NCBI GenBank assembly: GCA_030614005.1
Contig: JAUWKS010000104.1
Location: 1-7,643 of the forward strand
Source of the DNA: Candidatus Heimdallarchaeota archaeon
GTDB lineage: Archaea; Asgardarchaeota; Heimdallarchaeia; JABLTI01
Direction of reading: 5' to 3'
DNA: 7,643 nt
The position numbers and the translations under genes were made by a program. This document shows positions 2,976 to 5,426 of this stretch, in pieces (position 1 is the stretch's first letter; every line of letters starts with the position of its first letter). The notes under the pieces are model-generated. The model worked only from the letters and a program-made list of their open reading frames with translations. It did not search any database and was not told the DNA's origin.

Positions 2976-5426
2976 ATGTTTATAAAAATCATTAAATCGC
3001 TAATTAAATTTCTTTTTCTTGGAACTATATTCTTAATTTTATTGCTATCTCTCTCAGCTGGTTCTATTTCAGAGAAAATGGAATCTACTAACGATTTAGC
3101 TACTTTACCAATAGACAACAGTTCACTCTTCGAACTAAAAACAAGTGTGAGAGCTCCTTCCCTTATAGTTTCTCAAGTTTACGAAATAAATGATGATTAT
3201 ACCGGAGATAGTAATGGCGATGCAGATAATATAGTAGATGCTGGAGAAACCATTGAATTACGTTTAGAATTAGAGAACACTGGTGATCAAGGAGTTACAG
3301 ATGTTTATGGCAATTTAACTTCAACCAATCCATTTGTTTCTATAAGTTCCTCCAATCAAACATATATTGGGATTGCTGCTGGTGCAACGGGAATATCTAC
3401 TTCATACTATATCATCGAATTTGATAGCAAATTGAATGCTAGTGATATTATTAGTTTTAATTTAAATATAACTGCTAACGAAGGAACTTGGAACGATTCA
3501 TTTATCCTGACAGTTGTCGGTGTTCCTGAACCAATTTTCTATGGTCATATCGTTACAAACGAAGCTAATGGTGATTTAGATGCTGATGATGATGAAGTAA
3601 TTGATCCTGGTGAAGTAATTTCTATTCAGTTATACGTTGAAAATATTGGTGCAAGCCATCTCTTTGGCGCTGTTGGATATTTGTCCTCAACTGACTCATA
3701 TGTAACTATTCATGATGGTTTTGGGTCTTTTGGGACAATAGATGGAAATAGCAGTACAGACAATACAGAATATGGTTATTTTGGTATTACTGTGAGTGGT
3801 GGTTGCTCTCTACAGTATCGTATTCCTTTCAATCTCTCTCTAGTAGATGATTTTGGTCATTTTTGGAATTCAAGCATCGAGCTTGTTGTTAGTGGCCACC
3901 CTGAATATGACTTGTTGAACATTACTTTTGAGGAACACAATGGTGATGAAGACTCATATATGGATGCCGGTGAAACATGGTATGCAAGTATGACTATACG
4001 AAATATTGGTGATGCTATAGGTCCAAATGTCGTAGTTAGTATGACTTCAGATGATTCTGAAATAGAATTTTATTATTCAAATACTGATATTTCATTTGAT
4101 GATCTCTATGCTGGTTTTTCAGATACTAAGATTGGATCCTATGATTGGCAATTTACTATTTCTGATAGAGCTACAAAAGATCAACAATTGGATTTTGATA
4201 TTGTTATCAATGATGATAGTGGTGGACCAACAGATGTAATCAGCACTTCAGTACAAGTTGTTGGTGTTGCAGATTATGAGTTGCTTGAATTTGCGATAGT
4301 AGAGTATTGTTATTACGATGAAGAATGTAATGGTATCATCGATGCTGGAGACACATTTGAAGCAAATATCACTATTATGAATGTTGGTGAAGCAACTGGT
4401 AATGAAATTGATATTTATCTTTATACTAATGACCAGTATGTTGATTTCTATTATGGAAATGGTTCATTCAATACCATTGGTTCAATAGATGAAGGAGAGT
4501 CTAAATATGAGTATGATGTTTATGATTGGGAATTTACTATTTCAGAAAAAGCAAGAACAGGTCGAGTGCTTAATTTCACAATTGTTATTATTGATGCTTC
4601 CCTTAGAGAATGGCACTTTCCAGTTAGTATAGTAGTAGAAGATGGCCCAAATACTTTCTTTTACACCACTTTGGGTATTGTGACACTTATTGCTGCTCCT
4701 ATAGGCTTTATTGCATTTTGTGTGTTTCCGTATGTCAGAAAACGTGTCAAAGCTAACAAAGCTGGAACTGCAGTTAGTTTAAGTGACAATTTCAAAGACT
4801 GGCGGGAAGATAAAAAGAAGAAACGGGCAAAGAAACGCAAACAGCGTAACAAAGAACGCACTCAAAAACGGAAAGAGAAAGAAGCCATACGTCAAGAACA
4901 AGAAAGGAAAAGAATTGCAAACATAAATAAAAATGAAAAGAAATTACTTAAGAAATTTGAATCCATACTCGAGATGACCGAAAGTGTTGATATTTCCCAT
5001 GTTGCAAAGAGCCTTGCAATATCTGAATCACAATTATTCGAAAAGCTGATTCAATGGCAAGAAGTGCTCCCATTCAAAATTGATGGAGAATTCATAGAAG
5101 TAAAAGATACTGCTGATTTCACACAATCTGTTAAAGAAAAAATAGCTGAAATGTCTAAGTATTACACATGTTATCAATGCGGTTTTCCAATTGAAAGCAC
5201 TAGTCAGATATGTCCTGATTGTAAAAGTGATATCATTAAATGTGCAGTTTGCAAGTTGCCAATCTCATTTGGTGATGAGATAGGCAGTTGCGTTCTATGT
5301 GAAGCGAAAGGTCATTTAACGCATATGCAAGAATGGTTGAAAACTCAAGGAAAGTGCCCTGTTTGCTTACAAAAATTACCGGTCGAAGGACTAATGCAAA
5401 AGAAGACTAAATCGAAAAAGAAATGA
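2976..5426 (+). CDS. Single-pass membrane protein: signal peptide, 4 Ig-like/CARDB-like repeats, TM, basic helix, winged-helix (PCI-like), C4 zinc finger, RING (putative transmembrane E3 ubiquitin ligase-like receptor)
   Basis: Hydrophobic N-terminus (aa ~9-28). Four ~122-aa beta-rich repeats (aa 61-556). TM segment aa ~562-586. K/R/E-rich helix aa ~608-656. HTH plus wing aa ~655-712. C732-x2-C735-x10-C746-x2-C749. C756-x2-C759-x12-C772-x2-C775-x4-H780-x2-H783-x3-W787-x6-C794-P-x-C797. Confidence 0.85.
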   Translation: MFIKIIKSLIKFLFLGTIFLILLLSLSAGSISEKMESTNDLATLPIDNSSLFELKTSVRAPSLIVSQVYEINDDYTGDSNGDADNIVDAGETIELRLELENTGDQGVTDVYGNLTSTNPFVSISSSNQTYIGIAAGATGISTSYYIIEFDSKLNASDIISFNLNITANEGTWNDSFILTVVGVPEPIFYGHIVTNEANGDLDADDDEVIDPGEVISIQLYVENIGASHLFGAVGYLSSTDSYVTIHDGFGSFGTIDGNSSTDNTEYGYFGITVSGGCSLQYRIPFNLSLVDDFGHFWNSSIELVVSGHPEYDLLNITFEEHNGDEDSYMDAGETWYASMTIRNIGDAIGPNVVVSMTSDDSEIEFYYSNTDISFDDLYAGFSDTKIGSYDWQFTISDRATKDQQLDFDIVINDDSGGPTDVISTSVQVVGVADYELLEFAIVEYCYYDEECNGIIDAGDTFEANITIMNVGEATGNEIDIYLYTNDQYVDFYYGNGSFNTIGSIDEGESKYEYDVYDWEFTISEKARTGRVLNFTIVIIDASLREWHFPVSIVVEDGPNTFFYTTLGIVTLIAAPIGFIAFCVFPYVRKRVKANKAGTAVSLSDNFKDWREDKKKKRAKKRKQRNKERTQKRKEKEAIRQEQERKRIANINKNEKKLLKKFESILEMTESVDISHVAKSLAISESQLFEKLIQWQEVLPFKIDGEFIEVKDTADFTQSVKEKIAEMSKYYTCYQCGFPIESTSQICPDCKSDIIKCAVCKLPISFGDEIGSCVLCEAKGHLTHMQEWLKTQGKCPVCLQKLPVEGLMQKKTKSKKK
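3156..4643 (+). repeat. Four tandem protein-level repeats (~122-125 aa) in the ectodomain
   Basis: Each unit contains an acidic loop ending (V/I/M)D(A/P)G(E/D), then N-x-G, and ends V(V/S)G or VVE. Units: aa 61-182 (nt 3156-3521), 184-307 (3525-3896), 309-430 (3900-4265), 431-556 (4266-4643). Confidence 0.85.

Follow-up and report, generated by a model that had tools for sequence, protein, structure and literature searches.

A zinc ribbon-RING module as the predicted ubiquitin-ligase tail of a receptor-like membrane protein in a Heimdallarchaeota archaeon

A RING protein of Caldiarchaeum subterraneum, srfp, the one archaeal RING protein with a biochemical assay, is a proven ubiquitin ligase (E3) that works with an archaeal ubiquitin-activating enzyme (E1), ubiquitin-conjugating enzyme (E2) and ubiquitin, and an Ile and a Trp equivalent to residues of the module described here are required for ubiquitylation (PMC5654768). 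For the C-terminal RING-like domains of alpha-COP, HOPS/CORVET and SEA, a distant common origin was proposed in 2015, and these domains were not connectable by sequence (PMC4678705). A 2026 preprint links Asgard alpha-solenoid clusters to HOPS/CORVET, one of them with the propeller-solenoid order, and leaves zinc domains unmentioned. A full-text literature search, with most subscription journals outside its scope, returned no paper linking Asgard RINGs to GATOR2, SEACAT, IFT or protocoatomer zinc domains. The stretch of DNA analysed here (the window) comprises 7,643 nt from Candidatus Heimdallarchaeota archaeon (GCA_030614005.1, contig JAUWKS010000104.1, positions 1-7,643, forward strand). Its largest open reading frame (ORF), at 2976-5426 on the plus strand, was seen from the ORF list and its translation to encode a protein of 816 amino acids (aa) that ends in a zinc ribbon followed directly by a RING finger. 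This ribbon-RING is predicted to be the E2-recruiting ubiquitin-ligase tail of a receptor-like protein, a reading to which a probability of about 0.55 is assigned.

A sequence-only reading of this stretch had described a ribbon-RING tandem at 5169-5366, and the translation contained the motif exactly as claimed (CYQC-x10-CPDC-K-x5-CAVC-x12-CVLC-EAKG-H-LT-H-MQEWLKTQGK-CPVC), with base 5169 at the start of the codon for C732 and base 5366 at the end of that for C797. All eight cross-brace ligands of the RING were present, spaced C756-x2-C759-x12-C772-x2-C775-x4-H780-x2-H783-x10-C794-x2-C797, and their order is that of a variant C4H2C2 RING, not C3H2C3. Conservation was assessed in 127 non-redundant homologous modules, filtered to no more than 62% identity. 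Each of the 12 zinc ligands was at least 98% conserved in this set, and the spacing 10/6/12/4/10 was common to 108 of the 127 modules. The strict motif was found in 10 ORFs of the host genome, where about 20 loci matched the module in a six-frame search. With a 51-sequence profile, 2144 cluster representatives were matched at an expectation value (E) of 1e-3 or below, 543 of them at 1e-10 or below, among 1.84 billion proteins; homologs carried the label Heimdallarchaeota or 'Asgard group'. The same profile matched 139 of 200 sampled genomes of the phylum, usually with several copies each, although by family the module was lacking in some (0/43 in one) and present as a single copy per genome in another. 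The motif was deduced not to be due to chance, since its ligands are so strongly conserved and the module recurs in paralogs and in the 2144 cluster representatives.

The module nearly always lies 14-22 residues before the C terminus, and its identity across proteins with different N-terminal parts is 40-65%. Among the architectures inspected, the preceding parts were LRR, HEAT, TPR or PCI domains or, together with a transmembrane (TM) helix, Ig-like domains (the 2976-5426 gene), a propeller of the FG-GAP or LVIVD type or an SBP_bac_5 solute-binding domain. Two paralogs illustrate the latter group: G000:C64:7795-9621 (+) combines an extracellular SBP_bac_5 domain (E 9e-32), a TM helix and the ribbon-RING tail, and G000:C25:2819-5299 (-) combines an FG-GAP beta-propeller with TSP3 repeats, a TM helix and the same tail. 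By sequence comparison the module is genuine and old, and it has moved between proteins. In one further paralog module (G000:C67:46874-47122 (-), locus L007:1498-1770) an in-frame TAG was observed at the near-invariant Trp codon (LQE*VKTQG), and the sequence beyond it is still perfectly conserved. The stop may reflect a TGG-to-TAG nonsense mutation of very recent date or a variant of the assembly, or the codon may be read through.

The remainder of the protein was examined in a full-length AlphaFold2 (AF2) model, which was built on 17 orthologs and had a mean predicted local distance difference test score (pLDDT) of 76.9. Coordinates of the features are given in Table 1. The N-terminal helix, predicted to be a signal peptide or signal anchor, is followed in the model by a disordered linker. 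Four all-beta segments (63-183, 186-305, 311-428 and 434-553) make up the ectodomain and were mostly modelled at pLDDT 80-95; the match to Pfam CARDB was sub-threshold (E 6e-4), and the Foldseek matches were Ig-like domains arrayed in tandem in integrin legs, adhesins and S-layer proteins. A Lys/Arg-rich stretch was found in the translation directly after the TM helix, from which, by the positive-inside rule, we infer that the zinc-module tail is cytoplasmic. The long charged helix that follows is presumably a spacer or a coiled coil. In the winged-helix-like unit (667-710), the model showed a strand-helix-helix-hairpin at 670-708, followed by a helix at 712-727. This unit gave only weak, insignificant hints of the helix-turn-helix type in Pfam, and it is kept in the orthologs and in some other architectures (query coverage 92-100% for P0022, P0023 and P0025). 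The zinc module occupies aa 730-808 of the full-length model, and position L801 of the tail is L or I in 89% of family members. Because of this modelled layout and the basic stretch after the TM helix, the 2976-5426 product is predicted to be a receptor-like surface protein of type I whose cytoplasmic tail ends in the ribbon-RING. Full-length orthologs numbered 16, with 53-81% identity, in metagenome-assembled genomes labelled Heimdallarchaeota. A GATOR2-like host architecture was also considered and was rejected, as the protein has no WD40, RWD or alpha-solenoid part, its layout being an Ig-like ectodomain, the TM helix, the charged helix and the winged helix.

An E2-recruiting ligase tail is favoured by the conserved positions of E2-contact type, the parallel with srfp, the E2-like and ubiquitin genes of the host, and the use of a constant tail on variable domains. 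The kinship of the RING alone to catalytic RING-H2 E3s, its superposition on RING/U-box E3 domains and the predicted cytoplasmic location of the tail speak for the same reading. The E2-contact-type positions are V/I758 (97%), W787 (84%) and P795 (97%) in the 127 modules. The host genome encodes ubiquitin once (contig C123) and has UQ_con E2-like loci on contigs C29, C1 and C94; the scores of these three loci, in descending order, were 112.9, 50.4 and 48.5 bits. The attachment of the module to LRR, HEAT, TPR, PCI, SBP_bac_5+TM, FG-GAP+TM and Ig-like+TM parts, which would serve in recognition or sensing, is by analogy the usual layout of modular E3s. In the mechanism proposed, the RING would dock a ubiquitin-charged E2 via the surface formed by the Val between ligands C1 and C2, the helix Trp and the Pro of the CP pair, and would promote ubiquitin transfer onto proteins brought near. 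The variable N-terminal part, here the ectodomain, may set where or when this transfer happens, and the ribbon would be a structural addition by which the RING is stiffened or extended.

Several observations weigh against a catalytic tail. The score of zf-RING_2 (PF13639) at the locus, 21.2-22.0 bits, is below the curated cut-off of 27.3. The linchpin position after the last Cys, 798, is Leu, and in the family it is L in 43%, Q in 17% and R in 11%; srfp needs an Arg/Lys linchpin, as do many active RINGs (PMC5654768). In the ortholog contigs compared, an E2, ubiquitin or other partner gene was never a conserved neighbour. Alignments also showed that the Ile/Trp/Pro positions are kept in GATOR2 RINGs. 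The latter are mainly structural junctions (PDB 7UHY), and because they keep the equivalent residues, the conservation of Val, Trp and Pro is no proof of catalysis.

The same early reading had likened the tandem to the C terminus of the GATOR2 subunit WDR59 and had suggested that it may be the ancestral form of the GATOR2 RING. The WDR59 terminus quoted there was accurate, being identical at every residue of the stretch 901-962 that HMMER printed from PDB 7uhy_D. Whole-module queries were run with HMMER against all PDB sequences as a single sequence and as 7-paralog, 51-sequence and 127-sequence profiles. The single sequence matched WDR59 best (E 9.5e-5 to 2.2e-4, with 65 aligned residues across ribbon and RING), then Arkadia (1.7e-3), WDR24 (0.016) and MIOS (0.025). 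The 7-paralog profile gave MIOS (2.6e-4) and WDR59 (3.9e-4), and the 51-sequence profile gave MIOS (2.9e-5), WDR24 (3.3e-5), WDR59 (6.4e-5), IFT144 (1e-4) and Arkadia (6e-4). With the 127-sequence profile the order became IFT144/WDR19 (4e-7), RNF126 (2.1e-6), MIOS (2.7e-6), RNF24 (6.8e-6), WDR24 (1.2e-5), Arkadia (1.6e-5), IFT122B (2e-5) and WDR59 (2.3e-5). The signal rises with profile depth, as homology predicts, but it does so for catalytic RING-H2 ligases too, and IFT144 passes GATOR2. The expectation that GATOR2 would outrank other RINGs was therefore borne out by the single sequence and the two shallower profiles and not by the deepest one, in which IFT144 and RNF126 are ahead, nor by a profile of the RING only.

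This RING-only profile placed the catalytic RING-H2 E3s first (RNF126 1.1e-6, RNF24 3e-6, Arkadia 2.8e-5 and EL5 6.9e-5), with RMR1, gp78, Hrd1 and listerin as the next catalytic ligases; the GATOR2 chains were at 1.5e-4 (a fusion construct) and 8.5e-4 (WDR59, 7uhy_D). For the RING proper, the GATOR2 type thus failed to hold. A ribbon-only profile returned generic zinc ribbons only (an archaeal Zn-ribbon RNA-binding protein, eL40, Rpo12 and the MDM4 tail), with no GATOR2 or IFT-A chain among the 60 matches listed. In Pfam, the other models also stayed under their cut-offs at the locus: zf-RING_16 (PF17120) at 19.3-19.5 bits against 27.4 (18.0 bits in the genome scan, compared with 22.0 bits for zf-RING_2), zinc_ribbon_16 (PF17034) at 22.2-22.4 bits against 27, and Prok-RING_1 (PF14446) at 13.6-13.8 bits against 29.1. 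RING and ribbon matches at E<=0.01 were tallied for 51 members of the module family and amounted to 49 for DZR, 34 for zf-RING_2, 31 for zf-RING_16, 21 for Prok-RING_1 (best member at E 9.5e-7) and 16 for zinc_ribbon_16. Zf_IFT144_1st (PF23146) matched 1 of the 51 members (4.2e-5), and in the host genome its best match was at E 0.37, with none at the locus. From the RING-only and ribbon-only profiles and Pfam, the top ranks of GATOR2 and IFT-A in the whole-module searches were deduced to be due to the tandem arrangement rather than to a GATOR2-type RING or ribbon. At the sequence level, the resemblance to GATOR2/IFT-A lies in this arrangement.

The AF2 model of the module had a pLDDT of 82.6, with the core above 90. 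In a Foldseek search of the PDB with this model, ranks 1-27 were all IFT-A (IFT144, IFT122) or GATOR2/SEAC chains, with IFT-A at ranks 1-3 and IFT144 as the best match (E 1.8e-5, TMq 0.64), and generic RING/U-box domains were found from rank 28. Rigid-body alignment (VIA) gave IFT144 a Z of 10.3 over 96 residues at 5.5 Å, followed by U-box/RING domains with Z 6-8.4 at 1.2-2.9 Å over 51-66 residues. The best superpositions on RING/U-box E3s had Z 8.0-8.4 at 1.4-1.5 Å, with 1.2-1.5 Å over 53-58 residues; for Prp19 U-box, TRAF6, Ring1b, RNF4 and EL5, Z was 5.4-8.4 and the root mean square deviation (rmsd) 1.2-2.9 Å. In a structural search independent of Foldseek (VIA wide), RING/U-box E3 domains lead, and IFT144 was not among the matches listed. 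Superposition on WDR59/SEAC, which the GATOR2 proposal had called for, was poor in this search (WDR59 Z 5.9 at 8.9 Å, SEAC chain Z 5.0). These rigid-body and Foldseek-independent alignments indicate a canonical RING fold and a modelled tandem closer to IFT144 than to GATOR2. A homodimer prediction for two copies of the 101-aa module, with a 51-row alignment, scored 0.00, which counts neither for nor against dimerisation.

The ligand spacing was read from the HMMER-printed alignments. The Asgard module, WDR24 and MIOS share the ribbon C-x2-C-x10-C-x2-C, a linker of 6 residues, ligands 3-6 as C-x2-C-x4-H-x2-H, and x10 before C-P. WDR59 has the same arrangement with x8 in the ribbon. IFT144 has the ribbon with x10, the linker of 6, the same ligand 3-6 spacing with the second Cys of site 1 and both His lost, and x10 before C-P. 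The shared CxxC pattern claimed for WDR59 was confirmed by the alignments, in which C-x2-C-x4-H-x2-H-x3-W-x6-CP and the 6-residue ribbon-RING linker are identical. The noted absence of the extra CGH His and the terminal CxC in the archaeal module also stands, with 12 ligands versus 16 countable in WDR59, the last of which were counted from the sequence quoted in that reading, as the HMMER print ended at CPT. The module was seen as a mosaic in sequence terms, with ligands 3-6 GATOR2-like, the CPxC pair and the W-x6-CP helix RING-H2-like, and the extra GATOR2 ligands missing. The view that the ZnF-RING of GATOR2 (WDR59/WDR24/MIOS) in particular has this Asgard module as its direct ancestor is supported by WDR59 being the top PDB match of the single sequence, by the C-x2-C-x10-C-x2-C-x6-C-x2-C ... 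C-x2-C-x4-H-x2-H-x10-CP frame identical to WDR24 and MIOS with a His at ligand 6 in all, and by the matches of zf-RING_16 and zinc_ribbon_16 in the family (31/51 and 16/51). Nevertheless, this descent is judged quite improbable: IFT144 stands above all GATOR2 subunits both when the profile is deepest and when structures are superposed as rigid bodies, GATOR2 is equalled or outranked by catalytic RING-H2s in the 127-sequence and RING-only profiles, all Pfam matches at the locus are below cut-off with zf-RING_2 above zf-RING_16, no WD40/alpha-solenoid protein with a ribbon-RING tail was seen among the architectures inspected, and the 'TQ' common to the Asgard module and WDR59 is absent from MIOS and WDR24. 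Nor is the His at ligand 6 rare, as had been supposed, being ordinary in RINGs of the host genome with or without a ribbon. Seven ribbon-less RINGs there (Table 1) have the form C-x2-C-x12(-13)-C-x2-C-x4-H-x2-H-x10-C-x2-C, mostly with a Trp four residues after ligand 6 and usually with C-P at ligand 7, so that C4H2C2 is the RING form that recurs in this genome. One of them, C95, passes three cut-offs at once (zf-RING_2 at 36.9 bits, zf-RING_16 at 27.7 and Prok-RING_1 at 31.9, the latter two with neighbours), and for this reason these models do not discriminate here, a further point against a direct GATOR2 ancestor. The resemblance to GATOR2 is accordingly real and measurable in the single-sequence, 7- and 51-sequence searches, in Foldseek and in spacing, but it is not specific to WDR59 or GATOR2, given the better IFT144 match with the 127-sequence profile and in rigid-body alignment, and the specific ancestor claim is weaker than at first sight. 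The geometry is nonetheless suggestive of a tandem inherited as one unit, with descent from a common ancestor unproven. A broader scenario, which we consider unlikely, is that the tandem with x10/x6/x4/x2/x10 spacing may be such an inherited unit and the Asgard forerunner of the C-terminal zinc modules that join the protocoatomer-derived eukaryotic complexes IFT-A, GATOR2/SEACAT and perhaps HOPS/CORVET; in eukaryotes this ligase or assembly tail would have been grafted to proteins of the beta-propeller/alpha-solenoid kind, after which a fourth zinc site would have been gained in GATOR2 and site 1 lost in IFT144. In Asgard proteins, the ribbon-RING tail already stands behind HEAT and TPR solenoids; a cytosolic propeller with solenoid and ribbon-RING was not among the architectures inspected, which are a sample of the family, and family members of about 1000 aa showed no WD40 or solenoid by Pfam. 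As a separate observation, a RING-like domain at G000:C93:10436-10540 (+) retains the Trp and, of the two zinc sites, just the second (CPYC ... CPVC), its site-1 ligands being replaced, which is the same kind of degeneration as in IFT144.

Two other functions were weighed against the ligase tail. The ribbon-RING may instead be a non-catalytic assembly module like the GATOR2, IFT-A and HOPS zinc domains, joining paralogs as homo- or hetero-oligomers and thereby clustering receptors or building a membrane-proximal scaffold. The best whole-tandem relatives in the PDB are indeed junction domains (IFT144, MIOS, WDR24, IFT122B and WDR59 with the 127-sequence profile, and the Foldseek top 27), the linchpin Arg is missing, and RING-RING assembly is documented for HOPS (bioRxiv 10.1101/169185). 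Furthermore, the surface positions K760, L761, P762, I763, E786, K789 and G792 are 71-91% conserved despite unrelated N-terminal domains, which would fit one shared binding partner, possibly another tail. A shared E2, however, explains this conservation equally well, the RING taken by itself resembles catalytic E3s more closely than it does GATOR2 RINGs, and the fourth zinc site of GATOR2 is absent by ligand count; an assembly function was therefore regarded as doubtful. The least probable reading is that the cytoplasmic part, with its basic helix, winged helix and zinc ribbons, is a membrane-tethered nucleic-acid-binding or regulatory unit outside the ubiquitin system. It would account for the very basic 60-residue helix and the winged-helix-like fold before the zinc module, and the ribbon alone is like those of RNA-binding and ribosomal proteins and of the RNA polymerase subunit Rpo12. 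It is opposed by the second zinc domain being a clear RING by sequence and fold, by the insignificance of the Pfam winged-helix matches, and by the LRR, HEAT and TPR proteins, which end in the module and lack a basic helix.

Table 1. Positions of the gene, of the parts of its product and of ribbon-less RINGs (window coordinates, except for G000 entries, which are from the host genome)
Feature	Position	Strand	Description
Whole gene	2976..5426	+	816-aa protein, predicted type-I single-pass membrane protein ending in ribbon-RING module
N-terminal hydrophobic helix, aa 2-28	2979..3059	+	helix in AF2 model; hydrophobic window from aa 2
Ectodomain, aa 60-555	3153..4640	+	four tandem Ig-like/CARDB-like beta-sandwich domains
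Transmembrane helix, aa 565-591	4668..4748	+	helix in AF2 model; hydrophobic window at aa 561
Long charged helix, aa 604-666	4785..4973	+	K/R/E-rich; single helix, pLDDT 56-79 (AF2 model)
Winged-helix-like domain and helix, aa 667-727	4974..5156	+	just before zinc module
C4 zinc ribbon	5169..5222	+	C732, C735, C746, C749; four Cys 98-100% conserved; Pfam DZR
RING finger C4H2C2	5241..5366	+	C756, C759, C772, C775, H780, H783, C794, C797
C-terminal tail, aa 798-816	5367..5423	+	conserved LQKLP..G segment, short strand 806-808, Lys-rich end
Ribbon-less C4H2C2 RING	G000 C95:20126-20254		
Ribbon-less C4H2C2 RING	G000 C9:20722-20850		
Ribbon-less C4H2C2 RING	G000 C71:13131-13256		
Ribbon-less C4H2C2 RING	G000 C74:42670-42801		
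Ribbon-less C4H2C2 RING	G000 C24:6348-6476		
Ribbon-less C4H2C2 RING	G000 C24:5690-5818		
Ribbon-less C4H2C2 RING	G000 C9:93558-93692		

The host assembly is 3.6 Mb in size, with 33.5% GC, and is 90% complete. DNA near-identical to the locus was present in public runs of marine-sediment and cold-seep metagenomes from several studies, and no RNA run was listed among these. The window begins with the 3' part of a gene (1-759, +), cut at the contig end, whose Cys-rich product contains two motifs of the 4Fe-4S ferredoxin type (Pfam Fer4, E 6e-12). The gene at 800-2779 (-) is transcribed divergently and encodes a 659-aa protein with hydrophobic segments at the N and C termini, the zincin-type motif HEIGHVLGFAH and a weak Peptidase_M10 match (E 0.009); it is probably a surface metalloprotease, and a counterpart was not found beside the one ortholog neighbourhood examined. 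Downstream, a 252-aa ORF at 5869-6627 (+) resembles eRF1 domain 3 in its C-terminal half (Pfam eRF1_3, E 5.4e-5; 24.1 bits, just below the cut-off of 25.8) and may be a small release-factor/Pelota-like protein. This ORF was not found adjoining the orthologs in another genome. The genes flanking 2976-5426 had no counterpart in the two ortholog contigs compared, and no operon partner emerged. Flavodoxin and DUF4350 genes are common to both ortholog contigs and absent from the window. In the contigs of P0008 and P0011 (L019 among them), the DUF4350 protein near the ortholog gave faint IFT52_GIFT matches, and in one of the two a GPP34 (GOLPH3/Vps74-like) gene, absent from the window, lies near the ortholog.

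In comparison with known systems, the module has in common with srfp its archaeal origin, an additional Cys close to ligand 3 of the RING, and a conserved Ile (or Val) and Trp, a likeness drawn from the published description (PMC5654768). It differs in that srfp is small, stands alone and is encoded in a ubiquitin operon, whereas the 2976-5426 product is a large membrane protein with a ribbon. The best relatives of the RING alone are RING-H2 E3s (RNF126, RNF24, Arkadia, EL5/ATL, and the PA-TM-RING proteins RNF13 and RMR1), with which it shares the fold, the His at ligand 5, W-x6-CPxC and a hydrophobic residue flanked by C1 and C2; the layout predicted here, in which a single TM helix links a domain outside the cell to a RING in the cytoplasm, is also that of ATL and PA-TM-RING proteins. 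In the Asgard RING, however, ligand 4 is the Cys of a CxxC rather than His, ligand 6 is His rather than Cys, a zinc ribbon precedes the RING, and no Arg/Lys linchpin follows the last Cys.

The best match to the whole tandem is IFT144/WDR19 (PDB 8FH3/8FGW and 8BBG/8BBF; Leishmania 8F5O_F, with IFT122B as 8F5O_B), at E 4e-7 over 85 residues with low bias. Ribbon, linker and x10 spacing are the same, the last pair is CPxC, and the alignment extends into the post-RING tail. In IFT144, however, the second domain is without the second Cys of site 1 and both His, the rmsd is 5.5 Å, and the protein is a cytosolic WD40 (x2) and TPR solenoid protein of a ciliary coat-like complex. In the GATOR2/SEACAT subunits WDR59, WDR24 and MIOS (PDB 7UHY; yeast SEAC 8ADL), the ribbon likewise stands directly before the RING with a 6-residue linker, the Trp is 4 residues after ligand 6, and CP is 7 residues after the Trp. 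The Asgard module differs from these in having no extra His, no terminal Cys/His cluster and, by ligand count, no fourth zinc site, in having EAKGH for GHGGH, and in ending with CPVC-LQKLP, its last pair being CPxC as in RING-H2. With IFT-A and GATOR2 zinc domains as its only full-length look-alikes among solved structures, this widespread Asgard tail offers a concrete, testable lead, tempered by the RING alone being of the ordinary ligase type and the ribbon alone generic. The 2976-5426 product, a predicted receptor-like membrane protein of an archaeon, is probably best placed among the proteins with ligase-type RINGs, its own RING being fused to a ribbon. Surface proteins tied by one TM helix to a cytoplasmic RING, with Ig-like domains here and a solute-binding domain or a propeller in paralogs, would suggest that receptor-type membrane ubiquitin ligases may predate eukaryotes.

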